The notes under the pieces were generated by a model that saw only the letters and a list, made by a program, of their open reading frames with translations, did not search any database and was not told where the DNA came from. From the NCBI GenBank assembly GCA_040954595.2, contig CM082577.2, forward strand, positions 5,568,301 through 5,632,300: a stretch of 64,000 nt of DNA, in the 5' to 3' direction. Each line of letters starts with the position of its first letter. The stretch's first letter is position 1. This document shows positions 1-43,937 of this stretch, one piece after another. The stretch is from Balanoglossus misakiensis. Taxonomy: Eukaryota > Animalia > Hemichordata. The translations under genes and the position numbers were made by a program.

Positions 1-132
1 CCCTAGCTTTATGGCATTTCTATATACATACCAACACTTCTCCACTTGTATGATTTCCAAAGGTTTACTTACACATTTGTCAATATAGATAACAAATAAC
101 AGGAAGAAAACTTGAAAATTTGATGTCGCTCA

Positions 133-3100: not shown

Positions 3101-6100
3101 GGGCAAACAGAAAAGGCCACTGGAGTCAGAACATGCAGGCTTATAATCCAATAGAATTTTGTGTTTTATGTTAGCGACCATTGCTTAATTGATTCTGTGA
3201 AATAAGTCTTGCTAGCCTCATGGATCAGGCCACTGTTATTACATATATATATAGACATGTAGACCTGTCTAGTAAAAGTAAAATATGGAAGAAATTACAG
3301 GCATACATCTGTTAGAATTTTTGCTATGGATATGAGTTACTGTATAATGTCGATGTGTTTTGATTCATACGCACATATTATAACACTAACAGTATGTATA
3401 TGTACATATACAGAGAATGAGTGACATCTATGGAATAACTGAACAGGGTAGACTCTCCATCGCTGTAAGGACAGGGTCAACGAAATTTGCAGAATAACAG
3501 CGCAACACGTGTAATTGACAGTTACAAAGCATCGACCGACTAACACGCACGTACCTAATCAACCATCCATTTCGCTGATATCACATCCAAGTTTGCCCCA
3601 ACATTAAATTGGCTCAATTTTGTACTCAGTGTAAAACTTGATTGTATTATCATCCAAGTAAACATTGGGACACGAAAATTTGAAATTAAATCTCTCTTTT
3701 TTTTCGGCCTGTCTAATATTCTAATCAAGGGCCTTGCTCCTTAGTTACCAGATTGGTACATTTATTTACTGTACATAGAACAGCTCTCATGCAGGGCAGA
3801 CAAGCTCTCAGACACACCAGGTACCTCATATTGAACGCATCTTTACACTGTACAATACATGGGGGTATAATGATTCCATACAAAAACAGATCAATGCAGA
3901 CCTTGATTAGAAGCATTGTATGTGATTTGATAAAAATGTGAGGCACTCTTGTTGAAGATAAAATATCTTGAAATATGAAGCCAGTGTGTATTCTTTTATA
4001 ATGGTTAATGTGTAAAAATATATATTTGCTTCAAATTTTAGGATTACTCTAATTTTGATATAAAAAAAATATTCAAGATTTAAAACACCTGGTACATTTT
4101 TCAGAGTATCAACTTGTATTTCCTTTTTGCTTCCCTGAAGAATTTTATGCAGTTCTTCACTGTGGCTGTGAATGTATAAGTGATCTAGGCAACGTCTAAC
4201 ACATTTACGTGCAATAATGACCGACAGAACGTAATAGAGTAATATTCCACCAAGTAAATTTATTTAGTGTGATCAAATAAAAACGGTATGTCTCTTCGTG
4301 TACCATGTGTACAGCACAATGCAATGAATAGATGCTGTAAAACACACTACAATAGTCCACGGCCATGTTAATCATGTCTGGAAAATATGAACTAATAACC
4401 GCATTCATGTTTGCCTCTTTAGTTCATTTGCTTCAGAATAACACAGTCTATTGTGTCAAACTACTAACTAAAAGCAGTTTTCATTTTCATAAAAGAGGCT
4501 GCCTCAGGGTAATTTTCATGTTTTTTTTCAGTGAATTGTATTGTTACTTTTTATTTCATAAGTCCAGGTACTTAGATATTTTAAATGAAATTTTGATACA
4601 CAATTTAGCACAGTTAAAAAAGTGTTGAGAATTTTAAAAATCGGCTCATATAAACTGTGGCCCCATAAATGTATCAATTACATCTTTTTTAAAGATTTAA
4701 AAAGTACCGGCAATTTGACCACATCAAAATGAGTGTCATGACATCAATTTGCTACTAGCAGTACATCTGCAATATTGGATATTTGTAAGCGTTGCATTTG
4801 ATCATTTTATCTTGACATATGACATACCGTACATATTGCTCACAGTAATAACTCAAAATGTTCACAAAGCCCCCCCACTACATCATCACAAATGGTACCA
4901 TATTTTGTCTGTTCCCATGAATGCTGAATTATTGCTATTTCTCGATATCACCTGACATTTGAAACCTCTTCACAATTTTCTGTACAGGCACAGGATAAAT
5001 GACAAAATGCACTATGGAGAGTCATTCAGATTATTAGATTTCGCGTCAATAGCAAGATTGGGCACCTGACCGCGCAGAGGTGCTACTCTGGGTCAAAGAG
5101 AGCTAATTGAGCAATTACCATGGTAACGCCACCAAGCTCAATAACTGGGGAAAACGATGCATTTGCAGGCATACAATGGGTGCCTAGGTATTACTGTTGT
5201 ATTCATTTATTAACATTGGGAGAATTTGATTCACTCACCTGATATAAGTTTGAGGGATCATCAGCTGCAGTTGACGGTAGGGGTGGCAGACCAGGCAATC
5301 CCCTTGTCTGACTGCAGCTCTGGATTGGTGTCTCTACAAACTGCCATTAGACAGAAATAAATAATATACACCCATCAATATTAAAAGCTGTGATAAGCTG
5401 AGAATATATATGATAAATGGATGGAGAGAATTTTTTTTTGATAAAACCCTTTACTCACTACCATAGTCTCTCCACATATCGCTCTGAGTAGCGAGAAAAG
5501 GGTTTTATACAAAAAAATCCTTCTCCATCTATTTTAGCTCTAGATTATCTATTGAACACTCTGGCAGCTCAAAAAACATCTGCCCGCATACACAAGGTTG
5601 AAACACTACAGGAATCTTGAATGTGTGAGGCATCCTTGCCCTTCTATTTGACTTTCACAAGACATCAACAAATGTACAATACATCACAAGTCCAATGAAT
5701 TCAGTGAGAACAAGTTGTTTTCAATGCAAAGTGTCAGCAGGCTACATTCCTTTACCTAGTAACTATGTCGATGTATTTGTGTGTATTTCTTCTTTTTATA
5801 TATTTTTCTCTGACTTTTCTTTGTGATTTACAATACACCACTGCAGTCAAATTTTTAGGACAACTTAATTGTTAAAAGTTATAGAAATTAAAATGACTTA
5901 AATTTAGTGTCCTGTTACTTGCGAATAATTTACTTATATTCATATTTTTCTTTGACAACCATTGTACTGTCTAACAATGGATAAAACGTGTGAATTAAAA
6001 AGTGTAATTGAACACAATACAAGTAGCCACAACATTCAGCTCTCGCACACCTGACAAAGTGACTGGCAATTTTGCACAGACATTAAAAATTCATGACCAT

Positions 6101-6448
6101 GAAACAAGTTTTATGGTTCAACGACAGTTTCCTTTTGTAATCATTAACAGGTAATAGCACTGGAATACGTAATTCACGTTGATGATCAGTGCATGTCGTT
6201 AGCGTGGATTTTTCTGCAAATTAAAGTCTGCTGTCCAGGTAACTCGCATTGTGAGAGTCTGAGATGAGGGGTGTCCCCTGATCACGATAAGGTACAGCTC
6301 TGCCATTACAGCCAGTTCATTACTGGGGTCAGGCGGGTACAGTGCAATGGCTGCCATGGGTGCGTAACTTGGTAATAGTGGCGATCGAGCACAAAATAAC
6401 AACGTTTCCCTCACAAAACGGGATCATACTTACCCTTGCCCTTTCCAT
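133..6448 (-). CDS. Small uncharacterised protein (~117 aa), 3 coding exons; possibly cilia-related
   Basis: Exons 6448-6434 (MERAR|gtaagt), 5340-5239 (cag|FVETPIQ...NLYQ|gtgagt) and 369-133 (cag|IVLRNSEHPP...RILL*). All junctions are phase 0 with canonical GT-AG. X-box-like motifs lie upstream of the ATG. No family recognised, and further exons in the 4.9-kb intron cannot be excluded. Confidence 0.6.
1561..2727. mobile_element. Non-autonomous PIF/Harbinger-type DNA transposon (MITE-like), 1167 bp
   Basis: Terminal inverted repeats GGGACCGTTCAGTTTTTACGGC... and ...GCCGTAAAAACTGAACGGTCCC. TAA flanks both ends (1558-1560, 2728-2730), matching the 3-bp TAA/TTA TSD and GGG termini of PIF/Harbinger. 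Internal direct repeats lie at about 1690-1880, 2055-2230 and 2285-2380. No transposase. Confidence 0.85.
5416..5533. repeat. Imperfect palindrome / degenerate hairpin element
   Basis: GATGGAGAGAATTTTTTTTTGATAAAACCCTTTACTCACTAC pairs imperfectly with GTAGCGAGAAAAGGGTTTTATACAAAAAAATCCTTCTCCATC. Confidence 0.6.
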
Positions 6449-6495
6449 GATGTCTCGATCGTCGGTATTTCAAATGTTGATCACAGACAGAAAAC

Positions 6496-6512
6496 GTTTG
6501 CCATGGTACAAC
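6496..6512. promoter_or_regulatory. RFX X-box-like motif about 50 bp upstream of the small minus-strand gene's ATG
   Basis: GTTTGCCATGGTACAAC resembles the consensus GTTNCCATGGNAAC. Related motifs occur at 5114-5127 (ATTACCATGGTAAC) and 6807-6819 (GTATCCATGTAAC). Confidence 0.45.
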
Positions 6513-8134
6513 TTGGATCAAAACAAACTCCGTCGAAAGTTAGGAAGGTCCGATCATCTACAAGTGGCGGTACAAAAATGATGCCTGAAAAACTGTTGGG
6601 ATCGTAAGACAGATCAAGTAGCTGTTCCAAAATACAACTTGCTACCCTTCTACAGTCTCCGATCGCTTAAATTTGATGGTATTCGAGGGTATTAAAATAT
6701 AGTCCCTCGGTTGACTTCAGAAGTTCGTAGCAGACCGATGTCCTATTCAGTAGTTGACATCCGGGGACTACAGGTTGCTACGCAAAGCACACGGCCTCGC
6801 TTTCGGGTATCCATGTAACTACACAACTTCGTAGTTCGTCACTGACAGTGGGCGCGCGATGAGTGGAAATGGATCCACCCCGCGGCCGCAGAACATCTTA
6901 TTAAAAAAAACAGAGATGTGTTTGTTTTCATACCCTCTTGGGTAATAAGTATGATTTTATGCCACTGATATGCAGGCCCCAAGGGAAGACAGCGCTTCCA
7001 TTGCGTTTTACAACGAAACTGTAGTAGCCTCATGTGTGTGACAGTGTGTCATAAATAAAGTACATGTACAGACCCACACGAGTGTGTTTTTCTTCCCGAT
7101 TACACCTGTCAGATAAGGAGAACTACCAGGGAGAACTACCGCCCAGAAGTGGCCCGTAGTAATAACCTTCCGAATCCTAACATTTTAATTTCGAGAAAAC
7201 ACTTTGTAGTATTATATTGAGCCCAAAGGGAAACTTTATCCATTGACAAAAAGCGAATGCCAGGTCACCAGTCTTGATTTTTTTTTCGCGTAGTCCTAAA
7301 CGTTTCTCATTTCCATACACAAGAAAAGTATAATAACGCGAGTGCAGGAAAGTGCTGACTCGGTGGACTTTACACTGAAAAGGAAGGATGGTTTTCTATG
7401 TTGTGTGCGTCTAAAATCCGCGTGCCTTCCCAATCTCTCCAATGAAAACTGTTTTATTTGCATGGTACAAGCATAGGCCTACTCTGTAGTATCTATGATA
7501 AAAGGTGCAATGTGCACACGGTTTACCTTGCCTTATTCCACTGTCACTTACCATATTTGCCGTAGAAAATACAATTTCCTGACCAAAACAGAGAACAGAA
7601 CATGACAGTGGTATTTTTTAAAAGTTATAAATGAGGCCTAATAGTATCCGACGCGAATGATCTTGCAGCCGGGTCAAGCATTACATCTTACCTTTCTGCC
7701 AACTATTATATTTCTTGTATTTTTCCCCCTTCTTTGTGGTGTTTGAACGCAAACCAGTTAACACCACGGCCAAATTAATTTACTTTTTTAAGCTCTTGCT
7801 ACGACACATTTATTAGTGTAACAGAACTAGATATTTTTCCCTGGCAAAAGAAATTGAGACTGTACAGTGATGAGTTATACTTCTTCTGTGCAAAATTCCC
7901 CAATTTTTATCTCTCGGAAAGTTCAGATACCAACGAGGCTTTTAATTCTGACGTTTTCCCACACTTATTTCGCGTGGGGTGGCGGTTTTCGTTACTATTT
8001 CAGCCAAACATAGTCACCACCCCAGGGACCAGACTATCGAGCAACCTAGTACCTCCGTGGGCTTCGTGCACAGCGCAGCCAGCGGCGGAAATGGGCCAGG
8101 TGACTAGACAAGTCAACCAATGAGAAACTTCAAA

Positions 8135-8374
8135 TCACCAAAGCGGGACCGATGAGTGAGGAGTGGTGTGGAGCAGTATCCGTAGTTTATCGACGATGTC
8201 ATTCCGTTTCTTCATATAAAACGAATACAAGTAGAGTTTGACTGTGTAGTCTCGATCACCATGAGGATTTTCGTGCGGAATCGACAGCGATACGATCCTA
8301 GCAGTCGCCCAAGACCGTGGATCACGATTGATGTGACCAATTTTGCAGGGACTCACATCAGCCATATCAAAGAG
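8135..8374 (+). other. Putative non-coding first exon of the MUS81-like gene
   Basis: CpG-richer region with CCAAT near 8117 and a consensus donor GAG|gtaagc at 8374/8375. An acceptor tag at 8917-8919 precedes the ATG at 8935. The 5' boundary is approximate. Confidence 0.45.
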
Positions 8375-8934
8375 GTAAGCTTCCCTTGCATCAAACTTTC
8401 CAACGATCCCTACGAATAGCTACATTGTATGCTTCTTCGCAAAACCCTTCGTTCAGATCCGCGCGGTTCACACCGACGATCACACCAAGAAAACGCTATC
8501 TTCTTTCCTTCGCCATGTTCATTCTTCGCGAGGGTCCGATTGTTTGTTTACATAGACGCACATTGTGTATTGTTTATTTACGTGTCAGCTGGTAGACTTC
8601 CGGTCAGTGAGAGCTTGCACGCGCGATGAGCGTGAGACGGCAAACATCCGTCATGTCCACGACCACTTCACAAATAACAAGTCAGTTGTTGTTGTTGTTG
8701 TTGGTGGTGGTGGAAAAATGACAAAAAGTAAACAAAAACAACAACAGGAAAACATTTCTAAAATACCAATAAAATTATGAAACTAAAAAATATAGGACAC
8801 ACTAGTAGTGTACGCCCTGTGTTCCCCCAACTAGCTGAAACTGTAAAAGACTACACCCAATATCTTTCTCATGAGTCATAAACTCAGACCAACATGAATT
8901 GTCCTAATACCCAATATAGATATGTAAACGACAA

Positions 8935-11900
8935 ATGCCGATGGCTAAGGTGGATGAACTCTACTACAAGGGTCACCGGCTCGCTGACGAAAATTCCATG
9001 GGCTTCTACCAAGGGAGGTTCCTTATGGAAGACAATGCCATCTTTGAAACAACCAGCAATCCATTCTGGAGTGCTTGCATGCTGGCCTGCATCAAAGAAG
9101 CGGAACAGGAGGCTGCCGCCAATCCGAATTGTCGGAACACTCAGAACTGGACCAAGAAGACAATAATACACCGGGCTGCTGCACTGGGAGTACTTTACAA
9201 TAGTAACAAGTGAGTATGGTAAACTTCATTCTTGTGACAGCTTTTTATCTAATGATATCGAAAGATAGAATAATTATTCATACCAAGGACCTGAATTATA
9301 ATTTTGTTTCTAAACTCCAAGTATTTCATGTAATTTTTCCCCTGGATACAATCTCCATGTTATTACTGGTAGTTACTGAACATATTCTCTGACATTTCAG
9401 CACACAGGAAAGACAGCCACCACCCTTCGAAACTATTGACGACCTGGAGAATTTCCTGCAAAGTCACGGCAAGAAGGAATTGACCATGAGTCGATTCACG
9501 AGATTAAAACTTGAGAAGTTCCACAAAGAACTCATGTACGAACACATCAATCGAGCTGATCCAATTGGTGCGTTTGTACACGCCCAGGCCGTTGCACTAG
9601 GATTCAGGACAGGTGAGTGGACCAACCAAGTGGTGAAACTCTGTGATTGGCCAGATCTCAACTTTCCAAATTTGCATGTGGAGATTTAACCAATAACAGA
9701 GAGTGTTACTTCTCACCCTTCCAGATGATGAAGACGACACCATTGAGCATTTCATGGATAACCATCATGGAGGAGGTCATAATGGAGCAAGAAGAGACAG
9801 AGGAGCTGGGGCCGTTGGAAGGGGGCGAGGGGGTAGAGGAGCCAGATTGGGAGGTGGAAGGGAGGGGGCTGTTAACGGAGGTGGTCAACAAGGAAGAGGG
9901 GGTGTCGGCGCTGGGAGAAGTGCGAACAGGCCGACCAGGCAAGGCAACGCTGCTGGCAGGAGAAACAGACCAGTGATGTGCGCAGACTGCGAAACGGAAA
10001 CAGCCACAGTGTATTGCAGGGACTGTGAACAGGGCTTGGCACTGTGTAATCAGTGTTCACTCAACATACATCAGGGGGCAGCCAGGAGACGCCATCAGAT
10101 TTCAGGTGAGGTCTTTGCAAAAAGTCAAGGCACATGTTATTGTGTGTGTTAGCATTATGTGACTACATGTACTGGTAATGTACAGCAGGATGGTCTTAGA
10201 AATAGTTGTTCTGGTGATAGTCAACTGCTAACACCTTCACTTATATGTATTCATTTTGTGCCATTCTTTGCATTAGATGTATCTGAAGCTCCCAGAGTTG
10301 TATCATACACTCCTAAGGTAAGTCGACTGCACACTTCAACTTCAAGTGTACACTGTATCCGCTAGACATTATGGATAAAGTTGAAACATCCTAGATGTCT
10401 TTTAGCTCAAACCATTACCGAATAAAACTGAACGTAATAACCAACCACAAGACATGAATATGAGCAGTTTCAGACCTGTATACTAGTATTTGCATCTAGA
10501 CAAGTGTACACATGTATATCAATCCATGTTGCTAAACTTTTATTATCTTTTCTGTGTTTTTCAGTCATTCAAGGCACCATTTGCATTATTAGTTGCTTTA
10601 TACTAGTAAGTATATCAAAACAACCCCAAATTCTAAAGATCATCATCAGGTGATGGAATTGATGGATGTAGAGAAGGGAGAAGAGGGGGGGGGGGAGTGT
10701 TTTAGGTCAAGATATGTAGCCACTCGTCTTCTTTGCTTTTTCTTCACTGAATGATGTCTGTTTTCTTGACAGTGGGATCACAGAGCGACCACCACTTCTG
10801 AGTATGACCGCTGACGAAGTCAAACTCCGAGCTCAGAAATACACTGATACAGACCTTTGGAATAAAACTGCAGGTATGTGTCCCTGTATTATTTTTTCAT
10901 TTTGTGTCATACACAGTACATGTTCATATATTCCAAAGAAAATTTTCATGGTGTGAACTGACTTAATATCTATTTATGGGTGCAATTCTTTCAATTTCTC
11001 TGTTGCAAAGGTCGTTTCTTCGGTGGGTTCGATAGCATGGACAAGACGCTGGAAAAACTTGGCTTTGTTCAGAAAGAAGGCGGGCAGGGATCAAGGTAAG
11101 GTCCTATCACAGTCTATTTGATCTTGGCTGTGCATGAACATCAAGCTTTTACACACACTCACTGCTTATCAGTGACTTCAGACGAGTTACAATTTTGCTT
11201 CAAAGTTGAATTAATTTACCAGTACATTCCATATACACGTCTGAGATAGAAACAAGCACTAGACTCTATCACAGCCCTCGTCTGGGGCTACAAGGTCTTT
11301 TTATTGAATGCGCTCAATCACAAATGTTCAGCTTGTCTGTTGATAATATTTCAGATATGCCCTACAAGAGGCTGGTAAACCACTGGCTAGAAAGTGTGTG
11401 GAGTTTCGCGAGGCTGTTGATAGACTATACACTGTGTACAAAATTCCCAAAGCCCCAGATCAGTATAGGTAAGTTGAGTTAATGCAATCTGTTGAATTTT
11501 TAATGTTTGACATGGTGACTTTGACTGACACTGTGATCACATTCACAATTAATGACATTTCTAATCTTTTTGACTATCTGCAGGGCTGTGTGTGGATTAG
11601 GCACGGTGTGTTTACTGATTGACCATCATGAACCCCTCAAAGACAGACTCCTTTCCATCGCTAGGGAAAAGAACATCCCAGCTATTGTCAGAGAAATCCC
11701 TGTGGGTGACTTTCTGTGGGTGGTTTTGCCACCTGATGTGGACATCAGGTACTATGATGGAAACATGCAGCATAGAGAAATGGTAAGGTGGATTTTTATG
11801 CTTGTGGTATATTAATTTGAGTTGAGGTTTAATGAACAGTGCCCTCGGTGTCACAAATGAGATTTGATTTTGTCTTTTACTACAGGTGCTGCCACACGTG

Positions 11901-14900
11901 GTGGAAAGGAAGACATGGGACGATTTGCAGGACAGCATGAGTGGCACCAGATACAGAAACCAAGTGAAAAACATGAAGGTAGGGGAGTGGTTATGATTGG
12001 AATTTCTTCATGGATAGCTATCACTCTTACTGCTCGTAGCTTCCACTCACATAGCTTTCACTCTTACTGCTCATAGCTTTCACTCACATAGCTTTCACTC
12101 TCACTTGCTCATAGCTTTCACTCTTACTGCTCATGGCCTGGACTATTAGGTTTAGGCAGTACCAGTTATGTTGCAAACTTTCCTGTTTTGATGAATTTTC
12201 TGATTATGGTATCACATCGGTAATTTGTTAATTTGAATGTTCCCCAACATTAGCTGTGTGGACTGCGTGACCTGTTTTACCTTATGGAAGGATCCGTTTA
12301 TGACATGAAAACCAAGCCCACTCCCGAACAACAGATAAGACTGCAGGTTAGTACACAATTACCAATCTGTAGTGAATTGAAATTGAGTTGGAAGGGCATT
12401 CTATGGATCTGCCATTCATTCACGAACCAGTGCAAACAAGGTTCTCCGTTCATGGGTACTGAGATTTCATGACACTTCAAAAACTCTGCAATAAGTGTTA
12501 TGTTCAAATTGATGATTAGTACCAAGATGTTGTTTTCTTTACAGAATGAACTGCTGCGACTGCAAGTCAGGGATGGCTTGTTGGTCAATTACACCGGTTC
12601 TTGGTTGAAGACAGTGCAGTGGCTGCTGCAACTTACTACCATGGTAACAGGTCTTCACGATTCAGGTAAGTGATCTAAGAACCTGTTGTTTTTATAATTC
12701 TGGGCAAATATGATATTTCAGTATGATCAATTATGATGATCAATTTTGTAGGGGTCAACAACAACCTGATGAGCTTTGCAGACTTGGATGATTTGGTGAA
12801 GACAAATCGACGTCTACATCCACAGGATGATCAGCAAATGAAATCAGGTGGGTTTTTTGATATTATACTAATAGGACCTAGTAGGAGTTTAACTTGTCCA
12901 CAGGGACTTGCAGACTGGGGTCCATCCCACATACTCTGTCATACTGTTTAATTTGTATTTTGATGTACTCAACTTAAGTATTTTAGTTTATGAGGAAACA
13001 CAGCATACTTGCTTAAAATTGCCAGTGAATGGCTACAAAGATAATTTGTGTCCTTTTTGTGTTTTTTTGCAGGCACAGTTTATAAGTTGCAAGGCAAACA
13101 TTTTGTGGATATGATATTCAGGTAATGTTTTCTCAGTTTTCTTTTGGTACAGCTTTTTCCCATTATAAATAAAATAGGGAACTGAAGACCATTGGCAATG
13201 GTCATTAAAAGGGGATCAATTTGTTGTGCATGCACCTTCGCATTTATTTCAGTTAATGTCATTTTCAACAAGTGTGTTTAAAAAAGGTTTCTTCATTATC
13301 ACATTCAGTGATTTTCAGAATGAAGTAAAATTTACAGACGCGGTGAGAGCTGACATTCAGAGTGTACCGATGAGACAACGTGAGCGGAGAAATCGGTCTC
13401 TTCTTGTCATTGAGAATCTACGCGAGTATAACAAGGTGAGGATGGACAATACAGAAATTTTGTTTCTGCTATTGTGACAACACATTTTATGATAATAGCC
13501 TTCTGGATTTCATTCAGTACATGTACTTCTGTGATGATTTCTGTCTCACTTGCATATTGGTTATCATCTCCTTCTACACTGCAAAATAAAGTCAGCACAA
13601 GATTTTGGCCTGCAGTCATTGTTAATATCAAATTTGATTTGTCTTTATACAGGAAAGACAACGATTACTCGACAGAGCTTTGGCTTCCTACATCAACCAA
13701 CCCATGCCGGGCATTCCTGCACATGGTAAGTCCGATATGTACTTCGTTTTTTTTTCTTGATGAGCCAGGTCACTGCCAAATCTAATGTCTCAAATCAGTG
13801 TACATGCGGCCTTATGTTTGTGGATGCTGCTCCATAGACTACATGTACATGTATCTATAATGGTTGCTCCTAATAAATATGGAAGGAGGAGAGATATTTC
13901 ACCAAATGCCCAGGACCCTGTACATGTGTACTTGCCACTTTAACTTATGTATGTTTTCTTCATTTTTGACAGAAATTGTGGAGAACGAACTGACAGGGTC
14001 CGTTCTTGAGCTGGTTCACTTTGATGCATTTACATACTGGCAATTATGGCTACAGGTAAGCTCATGTCTATTTTAATATAGCACCATATTCTCCCCAGAT
14101 GTCTGACAATGAAAGAGCCCAGTGCTGTGATACTGACAGTGACCCCTAAACTTGCAATCATAGACAGTTGTACTACACTGGGAAATCTTTCAGTTTTTCT
14201 GATCAGGCATCCTCAGTTGATCTAACTGCTCTCTTTCCCAGGTTCACATTGGTGTGTACGTTTGTAGGACAGAAGCAGCAGATGAAACTCAGAAAGTTCA
14301 GAGGTTGTTTGAAGAACATTACAGAACAGGTAAATAATACATGATGAAATGTCCGACTTGGTCTCTCTCATCATCATGCCAACTCTATAAACTACAACAT
14401 GTTTTCCACTTTCTGACCTGATTATTGTATTTGTTCCTTTCACTATGTGCCAGGTCCGACAAGAACATATCCTCATCCAGGTCCAGATGGTAGAGATGAC
14501 GGTGGCGATGACGGTAATGATGCCCATGATGGTGGTGATGGGAACAGAAGGGGGAGATCCCCAACACATTGGAGGAATCATAGAAGAGGGAGAAATCCCT
14601 CAACTTCAAGAACAGATGAGTCTCATCACCAAGAGCAGATTCCTCACATTGCCAATGTGGCCGACGTCACTGGTGACTTAAGTATCCATGGCAACCAAGA
14701 TGATGGTACATTTGATATGGAAGACTTTGCAGCTGATTCACAGTCAGAAGATGCCATGTTACAGCAGGTATTTATTTGCTCTTTACCAATTTACCCTTTA
14801 CATGGTGTGTTTCAGAATTACAGTTCTACCAATGAAAGAACAGAAATGATATTTGCAGGAAAGATTGTCTTTAGTAGGAAGTAGTATACATGTAGTATAA

Positions 14901-17900
14901 TGGCAATACGACAATCAAGCTTGTAAGTTTTTTTGTCTGTTGAATGTGTTTGGATGTGCCTTGCAGAATCAGCATTTTTGACCGAAATATTTCTCCATTT
15001 TTGTGTCCCAGAATGCTCTCACTTGCTCAGTTAATTGCAGTAGTACTAATTTTGCTATGTCTTGTCTGTAGGTAATGGCACTGAGTGCTCAAACAAGTAT
15101 ATCAACCGTGCACGAGGATGATGAGCAGGTGCAGTTAGCTCTTGAAATCAGCAGAGAAGAAAGCAGGTCAGCCCAGAAAAAACAGAGGAGAAGGACAGGT
15201 GATCAGGCTGGGCTGGAGAGTGGGAGAGTGCTAGATGAGATTCCGAGATCTAGGCCTGTGGCTGAACCACTGATGGCAAGAGAGGTGGCAGGGAGTTCAG
15301 GGCTTGGTCCTCGAAGAAGCACCGGCACGCCAACTAAGCAGGGCACACCACGGAAAAGAAGTGTTTCAGACAATGCAACGATGTCGCCACCCGGTCAAAC
15401 GCTACAAACTGGGTCGTCTCCAGATTGTGGTCAAAGGTCAAAGAGTGCAAGGAAACAGGGCAGGAAGGAGGGAAGGCAGGCTGAACCCAGTTCCCGTCAG
15501 GAAGGGAGGGATAAAGACGCAAGGGTTGGCGACTCGGAGGATGAAGACTTGAAGCGGGCACTGCAACTCAGTCTGGAAGAAAGTCGAAAAGCTGCGTCCG
15601 AGGGAACAGGGAAAAGTGAGAGTGCGGAAGATGAAGATCTGAAGAGAGCGATAGAGTTGAGCCTGAAGGAGAGCCAGATGTCCACAGACGATGTGGTTAC
15701 ACGGCAGAAGGAAAATTTGGCAGCATCATGTAAGAGCCACATGAACACGCATGGTAAGGAGATATTGGCACATGATAAGAGCATGAGTGAAACTGACACA
15801 GCATGTGACGGGGTTGTGATTGAACAGGACAGTGATGACACACTCGATGATGTTCCCATGCAAAGCCTTGACGACTCGATGGACCTAGAGAGTGACAGGC
15901 ATCACAGAATTACTGAAGATGTGTACGCAGGAAACAGCACGGCCCCGGAACCTGCATCGAGCAGACTAAGTCATGCGACAGCATCCAGCATTGTGGGAAC
16001 AGCACGTGATCTGGCAAATAAACCAGACTGCGATTGCAGAGACGGATCTGCAAGCAACAACAGTGTGAAGACTAGAGAGAGCAGTGTTTGTCAGTTATCG
16101 TCCGACTGTGTCAAGTCCAAGGATCCTGGATTCACCCAAACTGATAGTGACAAATCAGTAGCAGAGAAAATATCCAAAGAAGATATGCCATCCCAGCTAC
16201 CTGATACAGTCTGTGTATCTTCACAAGTTTGTAATGGGGCAAATTCTGGCGCTGTTGAATTAAAGACTTGTGCATTAGAGTCACCAGTAGATGAAAACCA
16301 CAATATGATGTCTATGAAGGCAGTACCTGAACAAGAGAACTTTGATGCTGAAACCATGTCCTATAATTTCAACTTTTCTGATCCTGAAGAGGAGATAAGC
16401 GATGGTGTTAATGAGGATACAGAGAAAGATTTCAAGAGAGAGACAGGATTGACTGTGCAGGAAACTGAAAAATCCATCCAGCCTGAAAACACCATCTTGC
16501 CCAGTTCAACATCAACACAGTCAAAGTTTAGTCATGAGCTTGACAACAACTGCCAAGAATCTCTGAAAATTACACCTGGTGATAGTGCCAGGTCATGCAA
16601 GACAGATATCAGTGTCAGCGTCGACCAAACCACTCCTTCCTCCTTGACCAGAAACCACAGTGCCAACAGATCTCTAGATGATCACCCCGTGGATGATGCC
16701 ATTGATCTGACTGATTCGCAAGAGTCTGAAATCGATCTGACCAGGTCGCAGGGACTTTCTGATTCCCAAGAGTCTTTGTATGTGTGTGACGGTGATGATT
16801 TCATTCCGGTTATCTCAAAAGAGGAGAATCCTGACAATGCGAGGAAGGAGAGCGTCACTGAAGACTGTCTGTTCAGTTTGCTTGAATCATCACATGACGG
16901 AGGAGATAGCACAGGTCAATCAGCGGTCGTGACAAAGCCACAGGACAAGAATGGAAGCAGGGTCAATGTTGTCACGTCTAGACGACAGAACAGGAATGGA
17001 TCTCCAAGAGGCGGAGGGGAGAATGTTGACAGTGTGAAATGTGGAGGAGATTCGGGAAACGGCGGAGAAGATGCTGAACTGGCCAGGATTTTGCAGATGA
17101 GTAGAGAAGAATATGAGATACACCAACGACAGGGGAGAGGAGAGGTGTGGACCGACAGAAGAGATGACACCACAGGAAATAAGAGACAGCGTCTTTCAGA
17201 CGAAGAACTTGCGAGGCAGTTACAGAGACAATATGAGCAAGAGGCAAGTCAGACTCCACGAAGAACCGAGATCCCAGCATCGGATCGTGTCCCGTGGCAA
17301 GACATCATCACTGCCGCAGCCAGCAGGGATTACAACAGATCGAACACCAGGGCGTCGCCTATGAATGCTGCACCACATGCTGCAAGTCCAACGGCCACCA
17401 AGAGACGTGGAGCTGACGATGATGAGTGGACGGCCAAGAAGCAAAAAGTGGAAGAAGAAAAGGACTTTGAGATTGCCCTGCGCTATCACGCTTTTATTAA
17501 CGACAAAGGAAGTAACAGCTGTGATGAGGATTTTGGGAAAAAGAAGACATTGAATAAGCCAACTCCGAGCAAATCAAAACAAGCTTCTATCAACCTACAG
17601 AAGCAGGTAATACACATGTACTAGTATTTCCAAAAGAATCAAATTCCACATAGATATAGATTGGGTGGGGGAAATTGTCAGTTTTCTGAAAGGTGTCTTG
17701 CTATTGGTATATTATTAGTAAATAAGTATATTATTGGTATATCCAGTTTTGATACATTTTGGCAATCATATATGGTATGTATTCATTGAACATCTTTATC
17801 TGAATTCCTCTTGCAGCTGGAAGAATACAGGAAACAGATGCGAGAACAAAAAGGTCAAAGAAACCATGGCAACATGCCAGACAAATCAGGTAACAAGTTA

Positions 17901-19509
17901 AAATGATAAAAAAAATTGGGTTTGCCTGAGGGGATTCATTTTAGTTTTTCATGGTGGTCTAATGAATGGTCAAGGTGCTTATTGTGTTTGGATTAGTGAT
18001 CATGTGTCCTTTACCACCAGGTGGACTTCTCATTATCTTTGCATAATTGATACTTCTCGGAGGTGTTTGACAGGACAGATAAATTTCCGTGTGTACTCGT
18101 GTCATGTTTATCTTGAGACTGAAGATGCTGGGTTGAATGTATTTCATTTCTGTTACACGATCAGTAAGTTCACCTATGGCCACGACCGGACCAGTTGCCA
18201 GGAACCACCACACCAGGCCATCAGCCACAGTGCTACCGAGGACATCAACGTCGAGGGTGGCTACTCCATCCAGGGTCCTGAACACGTCATCCTCCCTGTC
18301 ACCAAGACTGTCAACACCTTCAACAGGCATGTCACCAGCAAGGTCTTCAGTGACCTCTGCGTCGCCAAGACCCGGGCTGTGGTCACTGTCACACACTGTC
18401 CCAGTTGCCAGTATTGACCTCAGTGATGATGATGATGATGATGATTTGCCAGATGTGTCTCAGTGGTGAGTGTTTACTTCTACTGGAATTTTTCTGGGAA
18501 CTTGAACTTAGCTCATTAGTATTTACCAACAGTGGACAGACTGAACAAGTGTCCATGTGTCAGTTTTGGGCATTTCACATCAATGGTTTCTGATACTTCA
18601 TAGGAAATGTTTTGAAGCATTAGCTATAAGATTTCAGAGGCCAAAATGGAGATTGAAAGATTAACCTATTCACACCCTCAACTTTTCTTATACCTGACAG
18701 CTTTGGTAAAATGCCTTCCTCCGCATTCAGTTCTTTGCCATCCTCAGTGTCTAGTTTCCATCTATCATCATCGATGTCGTCACCAGCAACATCCGCACCT
18801 CACTGCAGCAGCACTTGGTCTCCTCCAAAGAGAACAGCCAGCCCTCCTCCCCCACAAGTCCAGCAGGTGAACAGACAAGCCAACATGACCTGCGGGAATT
18901 GCCACCAGAAAGGCCACAACAGAACCAGCAAATCATGCCCTCAGTACTTCTCGGAATCCGAGGTAGCCAGGCGGAAGGTAAGGAAAAGTATTTAAATGCA
19001 CAAACAAATGCTTATAGTTGGTGGTAAAGGGTCATATAGACATTGCTGGACCACCCTCAAAGGACTGAATCTGTTTTACATAGAACATTGCATTAGTCTG
19101 TGTGATGCTCTAGACCTATTGCTCACACTATATGAATTTTCATAGGGAGGGGGATTTACTTTGTATATTTTTTAACGTATTCATGTATGATATTACTTTG
19201 CAAATTACAGGAGAGAGCTGATAAGATAGAGCGTGAAAAAGAAGAAGAAAGACAAAAATTGGAGAGAGTGTTGACAAGGCTGGTAGGTTGTTTGTTTGTT
19301 TGTTTGTTTATTTGTTTGCTGTTTTCTAAAGACATTTACAAGAATAGTGTGTTGATCTCGTGAAAACATTTATTTGTTGATTTCAGAGAGAGAATGATGA
19401 GCAAGTCCAACAATTCAAGGAGCAGGTTCTGAGGAATTGTGACAGTTTAAGACTGACTTCACTGGTGGAAGAAGTGAACAAGATGAAGAAGAAGAAACGG
19501 AAGAGATAG
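8935..19509 (+). CDS. MUS81-family (XPF/ERCC4) structure-specific endonuclease-like protein with B-box, winged helix, EME1-like segment, UIM/SIM array and zinc knuckle; 25 exons, ~1988 aa
   Basis: Exons 8935-9209, 9401-9612, 9725-10105, 10277-10317, 10565-10605, 10773-10873, 11011-11095, 11355-11468, 11584-11782, 11886-11978, 12254-12346, 12545-12665, 12752-12847, 13073-13121, 13309-13435, 13653-13725, 13973-14055, 14242-14329, 14454-14767, 15072-17606, 17817-17889, 18165-18465, 18701-18977, 19211-19282, 19387-19509. Total 5967 nt, open and phase-consistent. ERCC4 motifs: LIDHHE, PVGDFLWV, VVERKTWDDL, RYRNQ, LFYLMEG, LQVRDG. MUS81-like winged helix YTPK..APFALLVALY..RYALQEAGKPLA. C-terminal KKKKRKR NLS. 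Confidence 0.85.
12015..12133. repeat. Intronic minisatellite with alternating 22- and 15-bp units
   Basis: TAGCTTTCACTCTTACTGCTCA and TAGCTTTCACTCACA units, about 6 in total. Confidence 0.85.
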
Positions 19510-21904
19510 CTTCCAACAAACTTGAGTTTTGCACTTGAAAAACAAAGAATTTTATATCATGCAACTCACTGCCAAACCATTTTATTCATGATCTCATTTA
19601 TGTTTAAAGTTGACTTGTTATGTACTTTATTATAGCATGCATTTTATTATAAAAAAAAAAAACGAACTGGAAACGTAGAGCTTCTTCACCTTGTGTTTGG
19701 TCGTGTGTATGTATATGTGCTTGTATGTGTACATCCATGTATGTGTCTGTCTGTGTGTACATTGCCGACTGAAAAACAGCAGCAAAGATTATCTGAGCAT
19801 CTCTATAACCCCAAAGCATTGATCTGGACATTCAATCCCCCAAAAATTCTGGGTGGTTCATTATCTCGGTGGTAGAACATCCAAAAAATGTCAGGATGCT
19901 GTTCAGGTCATGTCCAAGGTTCCAGTGCAATATCTTATAAATCCTTCCAACTTCCAATATAATTTACCCACACAGTAAATATAAAGGCAGCGTGTCCCCT
20001 AAGGAGTACCCTGACTTTAGCTAAAACTTGTGATGCAGACAGTTATTTTTCTTATACATTTATTTTCAAGTATACAAAGCTAAACGACTGACGCTAGCCA
20101 GCTATATCGCCTCCTATAAGGACGCCCTCGACCATTGTTCGTAATCTATACTTTTGTTTTTATTGATTGCTGTACTTTTTGTTTTTCTTCCGTACATCTT
20201 GCAAGGTTTGTCCCTAAAGTTTCATATAATATTCATATTAAACTCGGTCAGTCTGCCGTGCATTTAGAGAAAGAAGGGAGAGGTATTTTTACAGTATGAA
20301 AACCCAGTTTCAGTCTTCAAGTTGAGTCTCCAGATATTCTTTACTGGAAGATAAGTACTTCGACTGTAACAACTAAACCAGTAGACATGCATTGTTTGTA
20401 AGATTATCACACATCAATTTAAAATTGATCTCATATTCACATATTATTCATATATAGTGTTAATTACATGTAGATTGCTACAACACAAACTGAAGTCATC
20501 GAAAAAAACACAGGACACCGCCAGCGTCCTGTATAAATTATTTATCACTTTAAATACACACTTGCACCTGTGCATTGAAGGATCACAGGAAACACTGACA
20601 TGGTAATATTATTATATTGATAAAAAATACCAATAATATGAGGAAAGAAGCCAACAAGCGTGACCGATCCTAGATTTATTTTTTCCCATATGTACGTTGC
20701 TCATATCGTTGGCCGCAGCGCACACGGTGACGTGGAAAAACGCCCATTGGCAACAATTTAATTATTTATCAGGTTACATTATGCGTTGACAATGACGGCA
20801 ATTTCTTTCGTCCCCGGCTAATTACAGTGTTTCCTAAAACACGACTGTGAAAATATCAATACCTTGTTTCAGTAATTGATTAACGGGACTGCCCGTATTT
20901 GATCACGCCCCATTGCGCCGAGGTGCCAGCCGCATTGATAATGTATGTCAACAACAACATAAACGGCGTTCGTCGCCCTTGGTTACAAATTTGCATAATA
21001 CAGCGTACTGCCACCATTCATCGAACGGTGAGCGGTGGAACAACTTTTCTTCCTGTACATAACCCCAGCTCGGGTCTTATTCTGTTCCATGTCCTTCCCG
21101 AACCCTGGGTCTATTCATCCCTGTAGTTCAACAGTGTCAAAATATACCCATGTCAGTAGAGGTGAGTCCATTCATTTAAAATGTCAGTCAACCAGTGACT
21201 ATTTTGAGGTATATTATAAAAACTACTGTCAACAGTTTACATGTTTGCCGAAGTTGACCACACTTGTGAATGCAATGCAATGTAATGGCGGATGTAGCCT
21301 TTGACAACCCGACGGGCGCTCCAATTTGGCGGCTAATTAGGATATGGACAGTGTTGACAGCCGCATTAGACCCTGTTTGTAGCCTGGCTCAGATTTTTCG
21401 AAAATGTGTTTATTAAACTTAACTTGCGATCCGATCTTGGCAGTAAAGACGTCGAAAATATCGAAGTTGCCGAGCAACATTCTCGGACTATTCGATGTGA
21501 CATTCCCACGGCGTTTCAAGTTCACAGACAACAGTCCTCTCGTTGCATTTGCAGTCTAATGAGAGTCGTGTGATATCTTATCGCCACTAAATGTGATAAT
21601 TGTGTGAATTGAAGCAAATATTTGTTTTGGTATAAATATTATTATTAGCTACCAGTACTGATACACCCTTATTCTTCTTTACAGTACCGTGCCCGAGTAA
21701 CTAGGTGCTTCCACATTTCGTAATTTATCCAGGATGATCCAAACCAAAGTTCTCTGAGGACACGCAATGTATCTGATAATGGGTTGTTAGTCTGGCAGTC
21801 TGGCACGATTTCTGTGCAGCCATAGGAACCGAGTGTCTGGCCTCAAACGTCAAAACATTGTACTTCAGCCTTCACTTCAGGGCGATTCCCGATCCCTGGC
21901 TGCG

Positions 21905-24900
21905 ATGAAGCACCCGTCTGAAAACACGGAGAACTTCGAGTTCAATCTCGGCAAGGCCCCGGAACTCCGGTGCGTCTACAACGAAGTGACGACTGTCTGT
22001 GGAGAGTGTGAATCGTGCAAGCTCGGTGCCAAACTGAACCACACCAAGGAGTGGTTCATGCGCGCCGGGGAGTACACAAAACGGAGATTCATCCTGGGAC
22101 TTGTGAGGCGCTTTCGTAGTCTGGACCTTCTGCAGTATGTCATCAGTTTGCTGCAGCCACTGCTGTACAAAGACTTCACGTATGCCCGGTCGCGGCCCAA
22201 CCCGGCATCCAAAGCCGACCAGGCCGATATGTGCGGCGACAGGGCCCTCCACTCGGGCTCTGTCGACCACGACATCACCGAAACCTGGCTGTGGTTCGCC
22301 AACTCCAAATACTGGACCAAAGCGAACTATTTGCTCGGAGTCATGCAGATGTCAGACGCCGAACTTTTATACATCATGGGCTCGCAGGCGAGAACGATGT
22401 TGAAAACGCAGCAGAAATCTCACCAGAAAGAATACCTAGATGGTACGTATACGTAATAATAAATTTGATTGCAGCAGACCAACACTCAATCATCCAGTGA
22501 GTCAAATAGCTATGTTGGTTTGGATGGAACATTTTTGGTGTATGATACCACAGTCACCAACCACACACATTCTATCTACATGTATTGCACAATGCAGTAC
22601 AACAGCATACCAAAAGTCAAGGACAGAAAATAACTTTTAGTTCCGCTTTACCAGGTGTTTTAAAAGCACTGCCATGGTTACTAACATTTCCACTCAGGTG
22701 TGTAGACACAAGCCCGGTAACTTGGCAACCAAATGATAAAGATCATGCGAGAAATAGCATATTTAATGAAAAAACACAGCAGTCAACCCTATTAATTAAG
22801 CAGACAGTTAAATTTAAAACACAACAAGCAAAAACAAACAAACACATTGGTACCACAAATTTAGTATTTTTGAAACACTGACATATTGGTAGATATGTTA
22901 ATTGGCAAACACATTGTCAGCATATGTGCATTGTGTTTGTTCTCCTATTGTCAATTTAGTTCTTCAGCACAGACATTCTGATAAGAGTGTCCTGGGCAGA
23001 GCCACAATGGTTATCAGTGAATACAACTGACAATCTATTGTGATTCATTGTCACAGAGGGTAAAACTTAATAAGGTGTCCGAGATCTGATGTTTGAGTAT
23101 ATTTAGGTAGACCCAGTGTCATTGTTAGAATACTTAGAGACAATTTAACTAAAGAGGTGAAATGTTACCAAAGAGTCATTTGGAAAAAGGAAAAACAGAG
23201 GGTGAAGATTGTGGAAATAACATTTTACATCCTAAGAAATGTTGAGGTAACATCATTTGTGAGGATGTCTTTTATAGTATGCATTAATTTCTCAGTTATT
23301 GTAGGTAAAGTCATGATGTAGGGTTGATTGACAAGGAGAGATTAAAACAAAAGAAATTGGCAAATAAGTGTTAATTTTCTCAATCAAGATGTGAATTGTC
23401 ACCACATCCCTGCCAAATTCCTAAATGCAATTAATGGTATTGTGTTCAAATAATGGAAAGGTTTACATTCTGGTGTTAGATAATAAATTTATTTTGAACA
23501 TTTTTGGCTATACACTTACAGACAGAAATATCTCTGAGTTTTCTTCTTTATAAATCTTTTTTTACTTCCTTTGTGTCTGGGATGATGTCATTTTGTCTGC
23601 CGGCATTGGCATAAAATCCTCATTCATTCTTTATGAATGTTCAGCCACACATATCAGATCCCGACAAACCGATAATGCGCTTTTTTAGACACACTAATAG
23701 CTTAGAAACCCTAATCCTATGGTAAATAGAGTTGTTGTCCGGAAAAAAACACGATAATAGGTCCAGCATCACACACCTTTGTCTCGTCTGTGAAAACGAA
23801 AACCGCCGTTGGATGTTTTATGAGTTCCTTGGAGTGTCCAAACCAACACTGTTACAGTCCGGTTGCACTGCATAGCTCATTGACTGCGTTGATTAGTTAC
23901 CATGGCAACATGGCTTCATCGGCATAAGCTGCCAATCCTGATATTGTTTAGAAGTGTCTTGCCGTCAGTGCGAGTCTATTAGTTGGGTTTGATCATGCGT
24001 CTCTCCGACAGATCTTGATTTGGATCATTGCATTTTTCTGTATTTGATTATTTGTAGTCAAATTGTCATGGGTTTTATCCTCCAGGTATTTGGTCTGGCT
24101 GTTTTAGTGGCTTCTTCTGTGCCCGGGTTGAGACCTGTCACAAGCCCTAGTTACAAGAACACCGGCAACATTTTCAAGTTGTTCTGTATTCAAGTAGAGA
24201 CATAGTCAACATGCAAAGAGAAAAGAAGGTGTTTATTTACGATCATTCATGACTTTTATTTGCAGTTGAGGTTTTTTTTCCAAGGATATCTCCAAGGAGT
24301 CAAATCATTGGTTCCAAATGTTTAGCCTGAACCTGAAATCTTGTTCTATTTTCTACTACATGTAGTTTTAATAATTCACAGATGGCTCAGTGGTAGTAGT
24401 CCTCATTATGGTAGAGTGTTGAAACAGAGAGAAACAGTGTTCCCATATAATTCCCTGTATGTTGCAGTTCTGCATTTAAGTACTTACAGAGTTAAAGTTT
24501 GTTGGTGTGTTTTCTGTCTGGCATTACCATGGTAGGGGTGCTCATGGCCAGCCCCAAGGGTGCATTGAACCATTACACAAGTGATTTAGAGGAACTATGC
24601 CTCCCAGGTTTACATTGAGTATTTGCTTCCCAGCATCACCCAAATAGCGACCAAAGCACAAGATGTTTGGTGAGGACTGGCAGAGAGGAGTGTTGTATTT
24701 GCGCATGCAAAATAGTTTCACGTAATGTTGCGCTGGCTGTTTTTACAGTTTGAGGAAACACTGTCGCCCAGAAACTGTCAATAAAGTGCAAATGTGAATT
24801 GGAATTCTCCACTGTCAAAGTTTAAACTTGGATCAAGTGAGAGTAAGGTACACGTAATTAATATGTTTTATTCATGACACCGACAGAAGAGATTAACCTG

Positions 24901-30900: not shown

Positions 30901-32073
30901 TAGGTCTGATGGAACTGATTTTCGTAAGTGTGCATACAAGGACTGAAGGCTTGGCTGTGTTTGAATTGTGTTTTTTTGTGCTGAGTATTGCGTGTGATGT
31001 GAATGATTATGACTCAACAGGTCAGGAGTATCCTTGTTCAAAAATCACCAAAGACCACCCATTTCATGTAAATCGTGCTGGCATGCTTTTATTTATTTAT
31101 TTATTTATTTATTTGTTTATTTTGATGTCAAATACAATTTTGCTTAGGCACAAGAGCTATACATGCTGCAATTAATAATCAAAAGATTCAGTGTTGAGCA
31201 CACATTCACTTTCAATACCGAGCAACTATAAACAAAAAATTGTTATTTGGAGAGAGTGTGGCGATTTCTGTTTTAGAAATATTCACAGAATCACATAAAT
31301 TGTAATTTCAGTTCATATCTGAATCTAAACTAGTGCTTGCATCGCTAGCACAGCTTAGAGGGTTTTGCACATAATATCAGGTGTAGTTTACACGTGTGAA
31401 AAAATGGTCTCCACAACAAATTTACTTTAGAGATGAAAATCAAAGCATTCTGTTGTCACCTTATAATTTTTGAAAACACACAATTGCTTATGCACTGGTG
31501 CGAGCAACTACACCTAAGTGAATGCTGCATCATGGGAAGGCATGGATTTAATACAGCAGCTTTGATGTGTTAATGTTCCTGCAGTGTGGTGTATATGCAC
31601 GTTAAAAATCTTATCATCCTGTGTAATTTTCTGTAACAACCCTACCTCTGTTTCTTTAACCTTTTAACATTTTCTAGCTCATTCATAATGTCGGTGTTGT
31701 AAGTAACACAGCATTTTCTTCAATGTGGCCTTTGCTTTGCTCTTGTCGAAACTGAATTCACAATTTTTCTGAACGTAGTTTTGAGCAGTCAGTGTACACA
31801 AGTGGACTGGAAATTTTGAAATAACGTTTGTGTAAAGACAAAAGCAAAGCATAATGGCACACTAAACATTTATCAATGATCTCCAGACAGCACATATATT
31901 GCATCCACTATCCTCTTCTACATCCTTGCGTCATTCACTCTGTGTCGTATCCAAACCTATTCCTGTTCTCTCTGTTGAGTTTTAATCTGTATTATACTAC
32001 TTTGTTATATCTTATCAATCCTAAACATTAGCATGGAAATAACACATCTACGCATTGATAATATTGGTACCTG

Positions 32074-32142
<69 letters not shown>

Positions 32143-43576: not shown

Positions 43577-43937
43577 CTTTTAATGTCAGATCTTGTAACT
43601 ATCACTCACTAATCTTATGCCATGGTACTCGTCTGCCCACCAGCCTCGATACCTCTCTCAGCACAGGACGTGTGATGATGACCAGTACGTCCAGTTTAAT
43701 ATGTCCATTTCCTGCCATGCCATTGAGGGCGCTAATATATGTGTGTGTGTGTCATGTGACAAGTCAGGTGACTATGTTATCATGAAACGGTCAATGTACA
43801 TGTACATGTGTACACGCAGAATGGGAGCTTATGATTATGGGGTGCGTGACACACACACATATATAACATTATTATTCTTTTCTTACTCTACAGCCAATTT
43901 AGAAAGTAATATCAATATGTAGCTATAAGCATTGGCC

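Follow-up and report, generated by a model that had tools for sequence, protein, structure and literature searches.

Eukaryotic enzymes of the XPF/MUS81 family have been described as two-subunit complexes that are held together and aimed by a tandem helix-hairpin-helix module, (HhH)2, which this family requires for both dimerization and DNA binding (PMC6320978). In MUS81, a further N-terminal helix-hairpin-helix (N-HhH) is the SLX4-binding domain (PMC5344696), and the winged helix binds DNA (PMC3834828). Here, we describe a MUS81-like gene from the hemichordate Balanoglossus misakiensis that appears to be organized differently. It lies in a stretch of 64,000 nucleotides (assembly GCA_040954595.2, contig CM082577.2, forward-strand positions 5,568,301 to 5,632,300), which we call the window and within which all positions are given. 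Its coding span in our hand-built model, 8261..19509 on the plus strand, comprises 26 exons and encodes 2,031 amino acids (aa). The gene belongs to a conserved family in which an ERCC4 nuclease domain is followed, in the same chain, by a second ERCC4-type domain and a long tail with putative ubiquitin-binding motifs.

Like MUS81 (MUS81-EME1 and MUS81-EME2, yeast Mus81-Mms4), the family has a winged helix followed by ERCC4, and it shares the metal-binding and wedge residues of that enzyme. Unlike MUS81, it lacks the N-HhH and (HhH)2, forms a separate clade, and adds ubiquitin-like, helical and B-box domains, an ERCC4 half-domain and a tail of 1,200 residues. The second domain resembles EME1/EME2, ERCC1 and FAAP24 in having a predicted non-catalytic ERCC4 fold (structure-comparison Z scores of 9.0, 7.4 and 7.0 to EME1, ERCC1 and FAAP24), but it shares a chain with the nuclease and is missing the first third of the fold as well as (HhH)2. 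The archaeal Hef and XPF homodimers also contain two nuclease-fold units, and Hef gives the top Z score (9.2) for the second domain; theirs, however, come from two copies of one chain with (HhH)2, whereas the family has two unequal units in one chain. SLX4 offers a parallel of a different kind, with no homology implied, as it is a long disordered chain whose ubiquitin- and SUMO-binding modules serve a nuclease (PMC8599992). SLX4 has UBZ4 and BTB/SAP/CCD but no nuclease, whereas the family fuses helices resembling the ubiquitin-interacting motif (UIM) and the motif interacting with ubiquitin (MIU) to the nuclease itself. Finally, a zinc knuckle in the tail is of the same class as that of TAF1 (PF15288), but DNA binding has been demonstrated for the TAF1 knuckle (PMC5854669), whereas the family knuckle is a sequence match.

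The ERCC4 domain passes the Pfam cut-off on a single exon (E 1.4e-5) and its fold is closest to that of MUS81 (Z 19.8, root-mean-square deviation (rmsd) 2.6, 177 residues to 2ziu_A), with other matches to archaeal XPF (Z 15.4) and FANCM (Z 12.8). The winged helix is of the MUS81 type both in profile comparison (HHalign 96.7%, E 3.3e-10) and in structure (Z 9.8, rmsd 3.1, 95 residues to 2mc3). The core model searched against the PDB was an AlphaFold2 prediction of 810 aa of a Haliotis relative (P0008), made from an 18-row alignment, with a predicted local distance difference test score (pLDDT) of 73.7, a predicted template modelling score (pTM) of 0.68 and 169 low-confidence residues. In the ESM Atlas, the nearest clusters of the Haliotis core are those of MUS81 (0.75-0.76), which serves as a lead only. 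A scan of yeast Mus81 has singled out eight residues, three of them metal-binding and five in the wedge (PMC12207449). The ERCC4 domain of the window protein carries the catalytic GD..ERKxxxD motif and has D473, E476, D502, E533-R-K535 and D538-D539. The eight positions of the scan were located through their spacing, and nine canonical proteins served as a check. All eight are intact here and in 26 of the 27 records that hold the exon (a count that includes near-duplicates), the exception being one S to T change. The family nuclease is probably active, judging from its sequence.

The helix-hairpin-helix modules could not be found. An (HhH)2 profile made from canonical C-termini reached at best -0.4 bits among 23 members, while all six controls scored 18-78 bits, values that include a contribution from the last nuclease helix. 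An N-HhH profile, which recognizes three of its six controls, reached at best -1.2 bits in the 23 members. On these scores, we reject both a cryptic (HhH)2 and an N-HhH in these members. The preliminary description of this locus, made from the sequence of the window, had read a winged helix and a nuclease domain and set them against a canonical MUS81 that ends in (HhH)2, and these readings hold. It had also seen a faint N-HhH likeness in the N-terminal helical region, which has to be given up, because HHalign of that region with the MUS81 N-terminus gives 0.1%.

In order to place the family, a nuclease-domain profile built from six domains was run on 7,996 candidates. It matched 88 proteins, 21 of them family records at 119-295 bits and the other 67 at no more than 91 bits; HHH_8 and EME1-MUS81_C, which are typical of the 67, occur in none of the 21 family records. 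In a tree of 45 rows (20 from the family and 25 of the 67 non-family matches; LG+G4, no mixture model), the family forms one side of a branch with 100/100 support and a length of 1.21. This tree, which drew long-branch warnings, has no XPF, EME1, FANCM or SHOC1 rows and neither roots nor dates the family. Within the family, corals branch first, and the window protein groups with those of Saccoglossus and Ptychodera (100/98). An approximately unbiased (AU) test on 20 rows rejected a grouping of the deuterostome members with vertebrate MUS81 (p 1.4e-5, at a cost of 92.6 log units). The clade, its long stem and the AU test uphold the earlier proposal of a separate subfamily, and sequence comparison thus supports the family as a MUS81 paralogue subfamily distinct from canonical MUS81. 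None of the 88 profile matches was a canonical MUS81 from a family-bearing species. For amphioxus, models 125665, 117481 and 111136 are tabulated as MUS81, EME1 and SLX4, respectively (PMC3969565, supplementary table 3). The amphioxus family member is BRAFLDRAFT_67480, a number different from that tabulated as MUS81. Assuming, as we do, that both sets of numbers follow one scheme, the model numbers alone indicate, indirectly, that canonical MUS81 and the family member co-occur in amphioxus.

In the position that (HhH)2 holds in MUS81, the family has a second domain of ~135 residues. It lacks the GD and ERK motifs in the alignment, carries a two-helix insertion that starts at a conserved L-x-x-YNK motif, and is conserved from corals to the window (33-66 identities over about 135-146 columns in complete members). 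When the Lingula second domain was folded alone (pLDDT 88) and compared with 48,161 chains, ranks 1-8 all belonged to the ERCC4 superfamily: Hef at Z 9.2 (rmsd 2.3, 90 residues aligned), EME1 at 8.1, XPF at 8.0, FANCM at 7.9, ERCC1 and MUS81 at 7.4 each, and FAAP24 at 7.0 and 6.5, with the first unrelated chain at 6.3. In a repeat comparison, Hef (9.2), EME1 (9f98_D, 9.0) and MUS81 (8.8) were tied. EME1 came 35th in Foldseek, its probability (0.77) and TM-score (0.49) being the highest among the matches listed, and the nearest ESM Atlas clusters are of ERCC4/EME1/Rad10 types (0.81-0.85, leads only). The modelled fold identifies this domain as an ERCC4-type half-domain that is predicted to be catalytically inactive. 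Hence, of the EME1-like segment named in the preliminary description, the ERCC4-type fold without catalytic motifs stands, while the tie of Hef, EME1 and MUS81 does not single out EME1 as the closest of them. That this second ERCC4 fold shares the chain and occupies the place of (HhH)2, which is the main point, had gone unnoticed there, as had a ubiquitin-like domain at the N-terminus. The domain may have arisen by fusion of an EME1 or by internal duplication; a profile comparison with the family's own ERCC4 domain, which bears on duplication by sequence, gives 0.3%. As a separate observation, residues 622-765 of P0027 lie near ESM Atlas clusters that comprise, among others, small ERCC4-type proteins from giant viruses (0.84-0.85), a lead with no sign of transfer.

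The gene model was built from reading frame, splice signals and homology, the exon borders of the tail from frame and splice signals only. All introns of the 26-exon model are GT-AG, the sole stop is terminal and the frame is otherwise open. The preliminary description had proposed a single spliced frame starting at 8935. Such a frame does exist from the ATG at 8935 to the stop at 19509 (25 exons, 1,988 aa, introns of 86-304 bases, GT-AG throughout), but one upstream exon had been overlooked. The closest database relative, Ptychodera flava XP_070579256.1 (P0001), reaches farther upstream than 8935, and with it tblastn recovered an exon at 8261-8374 (75% identity) that splices to 8920 and moves the true start to 8261. 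The 2,031-aa model and P0001 share 76% identity over 569 columns, and the window core aligns collinearly with 15 relatives. One intron of the gene contains a degenerate short tandem repeat of CATAGCTTTCACTCT-type units (12016-12140). The exons and features are as follows.

Exons 1-9, plus strand: 8261-8374, 8920-9209, 9401-9612, 9725-10105, 10277-10317, 10565-10605, 10773-10873, 11011-11095, 11355-11468
Exons 10-18, plus strand: 11584-11782, 11886-11978, 12254-12346, 12545-12665, 12752-12847, 13073-13121, 13309-13435, 13653-13725, 13973-14055
Exons 19-26, plus strand: 14242-14329, 14454-14767, 15072-17606, 17817-17889, 18165-18465, 18701-18977, 19211-19282, 19387-19509
8261..9060, plus strand: ubiquitin-like domain, aa 1-85, in two exons (fold of a relative's model)
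9061..9611, plus strand: all-helical conserved domain, aa 86-205 (alignment and a relative's model)
9769..9963, plus strand: Gly/Arg-rich (RGG) linker (sequence and alignment)
9976..10104, plus strand: B-box zinc finger (Pfam PF00643)
10303..11409, plus strand: winged helix, MUS81 type, aa 342-440, in five exons
11600..12810, plus strand: ERCC4 nuclease domain, aa 466-648
13073..14319, plus strand: truncated second ERCC4-type (pseudo-nuclease) domain, aa 661-797
14726..15092, plus strand: FAxDSQxE motif with a UIM-like helix behind it; the conserved islands of the tail start here
15120..15671, plus strand: three UIM-type helices (15120-15161, 15537-15581, 15627-15671)
16701..16745, plus strand: two IDLT motifs resembling SUMO-interacting motifs (SIMs), the first followed by DSQE (sequence)
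17070..17240, plus strand: two D-x-x-LA-R-x-LQ helices, MIU-like candidates
18891..18956, plus strand: zinc knuckle CGxCxxxGHxRxxxxC, TAF1-like class (PF15288)
18960..19509, plus strand: charged coiled-coil-like helix and basic C-terminus (KKKKRKR, resembling a nuclear localization signal; by eye)

The newly added start extends the protein into a ubiquitin-like domain that has no C-terminal di-glycine. Residues 15-94 of the Haliotis model form a beta-grasp fold (Z 11.1, rmsd 1.7, 70 of 75 residues to 8vk9_F), ubiquitin-fold chains match it at Z 10-11 with an rmsd of 1.5-2, and the ubiquitin-like domains of Rad23, Dsk2 and Ddi2 are among its matches at Z 9-10. Pfam ubiquitin is found in P0006 under the curated cut-off (E 8e-5). 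The helical domain that follows is conserved on a par with the nuclease (39-104 identities per 120 columns in 15 relatives), contains the motifs SNPFW, QPP and DP-G, and has a pLDDT of about 80-93 in the relative's model. No Pfam or PDB counterpart appeared among the matches listed, and residues 86-205 are possibly a new domain. The RGG tract and the B-box are both present as first described. The former, read from the sequence, varies in length between species and is absent or short in several members, and the latter exceeds the Pfam PF00643 cut-off (E 4.6e-8) with its Cys/His columns conserved in relatives.

The tail patterns were written after the sequences had been viewed, and they were counted in 20 full-length members that include near-duplicates. 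FAxDSQxE occurs in 13 of these, from coral to amphioxus, and a UIM-like pattern in 16. In the window, Pfam UIM covers two stretches (E 6.6e-9, 35.4 bits against a cut-off of 21), while the third helix was recognized by eye, and the UIM and MIU-like patterns exceed those in 2,000 shuffles of the tail. The UIMs of the preliminary description can be retained as putative ubiquitin-binding modules. Its SIMs fare less well: the two pattern matches are there but are not clearly above shuffles, and a SUMO reading is weak. The D-x-x-LA-R-x-LQ helices, which we take to be MIU-like, have no Pfam match; the pattern, devised post hoc, occurs twice, a count reached in none of the 2,000 shuffles. DSQ, presumably a phosphorylation site of ATM/ATR, often sits behind a hydrophobic SIM-like core. 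By a post hoc count, DSQ is enriched in seven of 12 tails, marginal in the window (43/1,000 shuffles) and absent in Lingula. An S/T-Q cluster domain was also considered for the window tail and is unsupported (11 sites observed against 13.7 expected). The zinc knuckle proposed earlier is backed by a zf-CCHC_6 match (E 7e-4 in the window, under the curated cut-off; over it in several relatives) and by a pattern present in 18 of the 20 members, and the family profile matches TAF1 chains. The coiled-coil-like end and the basic C-terminus, read from the sequence only, are present as described, and relatives have basic C-terminal ends too.

The family was collected with HMMER, using the 91-aa second exon as a query against 1.84 billion representatives with no word filter, which returned 24 matches; word searches added further members. 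The repetitive matches P0014, P0019 and P0022 were unrelated by Pfam and were dropped. Named members are known from the corals Montipora and Stylophora, amphioxus, the brachiopod Lingula, the annelid Owenia and several molluscs, besides the hemichordates Ptychodera and Saccoglossus, whose records are both truncated within or just past the nuclease domain. Full-length members have 1,490-2,531 aa and the layout of the window protein. Among the matches, no named member came from a vertebrate, arthropod, nematode, echinoderm or tunicate, and nine short unnamed fragments could not be placed. Thus, the suggested restriction to invertebrates agrees with every named member, but absence elsewhere is a search result only. 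That the tail is part of the nuclease protein and not a separate transcript, as the preliminary description had it, is confirmed by independent annotations that join tail motifs to the core in five phyla besides that of the window. Moreover, the P0029 cluster contains several 1,489-aa records on contigs of 4,964-5,003 bases. Since a contig of ~5.0 kb with a 4.5-kb frame has no space for introns, these contigs, known by their length only, point to a spliced transcript joining core and tail.

UniRef labels several members 'Crossover junction endonuclease MUS81', and other database names are of the uncharacterized type. Annotation problems affect P0001, P0002, P0030, P0028 and P0077, with early stops in the hemichordate records and misleading names elsewhere; the low-complexity tail lies behind the names 'platelet binding protein GspB-like' and 'serine-rich adhesin'. 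We found no published account of the family in literature searches that stopped short of subscription journals, InterPro, bioRxiv supplements and file 1 of PMC3969565. The available portions of PMC11377751, PMC10564563, PMC3380836, PMC3969565, PMC12207449, PMC5344696, PMC8599992, PMC6320978, PMC3834828 and PMC5854669 do not describe it.

Elsewhere in the window, a downstream gene at 21791-38858 (plus strand) has an F-box (Pfam E 1.3e-6, open reading frame 29441-29950) and a long low-complexity last exon; we take it to resemble the FBXW10/CDRT1 type. A leucine-rich-repeat gene at 43929-46032 (plus strand; Pfam LRR E 9e-11) may be of the LRRC14/PRAME type. Possible short exons of a divergently transcribed upstream gene lie on the minus strand at 120-372, 5232-5350 and 6230-6600. 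The palindrome TACATGTA occurs in 21 copies in the whole window against 1.6 in base shuffles.

The reading that we favour, with a probability of roughly one half, is that the family is a conserved invertebrate MUS81 paralogue, likely an active structure-selective endonuclease, which is predicted to carry an inactive ERCC4 partner in cis and is likely brought to damaged chromatin by the ubiquitin binding of its tail and not via SLX4. The half-domain would pack against the nuclease domain in the way EME1 packs against MUS81 and make a second subunit unnecessary, an arrangement to which we lean slightly; the pTM of 0.68 of the core model with its 169 low-confidence residues is consistent with ordered domain packing. 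The winged helix, zinc knuckle and basic insertion might substitute for (HhH)2 in gripping branched DNA, a proposal on which we are evenly divided. We are more confident that the disordered tail would recognize ubiquitin chains where forks stall or where crosslinks or breaks occur; such self-recruitment is suggested by the sequence motifs. That this would be tuned by phosphorylation of DSQ sites beside SIM-like cores is a more doubtful suggestion. Speculatively, the ubiquitin-like domain could fold back on the UIMs and restrain the enzyme until chromatin ubiquitin competes, or, in an equally speculative role, link it to proteasome or p97 factors. A tentative wider scenario would make the family an animal XPF/MUS81 branch that predates the cnidarian-bilaterian split, was lost in vertebrates and ecdysozoans, and condenses the MUS81-EME1-SLX4 logic into one chain: an HhH-free pair in cis, a tail reading ubiquitin and ATM/ATR-type phosphorylation, and an N-terminal ubiquitin mimic as an off-switch until chromatin is ubiquitylated. 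A number of observations weigh against the favoured reading. Both structure models are of relatives' proteins and rest on 18-row alignments. The second domain comprises no more than the C-terminal two thirds of an ERCC4 fold (matching Hef 45-134, MUS81 330-421 and EME1 311-445), its Z scores of 8-9 are moderate, Foldseek gave no match to it below E 0.001, and profile comparison with canonical MUS81 reaches only 5.3%. In the window protein, the two ERCC4 domains are connected by a short linker of ~12 residues, which may bar the MUS81-EME1 geometry, and the zinc knuckle is 1,150 residues away from the nuclease. In the tail, the UIM pattern is missing from four of the 20 full-length members, the two SIM matches are equalled in 104 of 2,000 shuffles, and S/T-Q sites are not enriched (11, with 13.7 expected).

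The incomplete second domain also suits an active MUS81 paralogue that remains dependent on a second subunit, be it EME1, another ERCC4 partner, or a second copy joined through the coiled coil or a half-domain swap, the half-domain then serving to bind DNA or a partner. Obligate heterodimerization is known for Mus81 and homodimerization for archaeal XPF/Hef (PMC12207449, PMC6320978), EME1 is tabulated for amphioxus (PMC3969565), and the coiled-coil-like end is conserved. However, the dimerizing (HhH)2 is absent in 23 of 23 members with the half-domain exactly in its place, and we consider this explanation rather unlikely, if the most serious of the alternatives. The RAD23- or DDI2-type shuttles are a model for a ubiquitin-like domain combined with UIMs, and they lead to a nuclease for protein turnover or RNA substrates, in which these modules would clear ubiquitylated DNA-protein crosslinks, or the RGG tract and knuckle would target R-loops or RNA. 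The Rad23, Dsk2 and Ddi2 matches, the several UIMs, the B-box and the window RGG tract all speak for it, but ubiquitin, SUMO and many others match equally well, the RGG tract is short or absent in several members, and the wedge residues for branched DNA are fully conserved, making it improbable. A germline-restricted resolvase or crossover factor, which would give broadcast-spawning invertebrates a second route in addition to MUS81-EME1, is more improbable yet: another ERCC4 pair, SHOC1-SPO16, is meiotic and every named host is a marine invertebrate, but a ubiquitin-reading tail suits damage signalling at least equally well. This possibility concerns the site of action, and its biochemistry is compatible with the favoured reading. 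Finally, the UniRef 'MUS81' names, the hemichordate records that end in or just after the nuclease domain, and the lack of a canonical MUS81 of any family-bearing species among the 88 matches could mean that we are dealing with the sole, remodelled MUS81 of these animals, or with an artefact fusing neighbouring genes. Given the AU test, the different amphioxus model tabulated as MUS81, the joining of core and tail in five other phyla and the 1,489-aa records on ~5.0-kb contigs, this is largely refuted and has very little probability left.

If the favoured reading is true, a catalytically intact family that gave up both HhH modules and has retained a half-domain in cis for more than half a billion years would show which parts of the partner are truly required, and it would provide a single-polypeptide system for testing MUS81 activation. 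As some members are named 'MUS81' in databases, surveys of repair and meiosis genes may conflate two genes. In summary, these findings point to a route of repair or recombination that is shared by corals, molluscs, amphioxus and acorn worms and is seemingly absent from the usual model animals.

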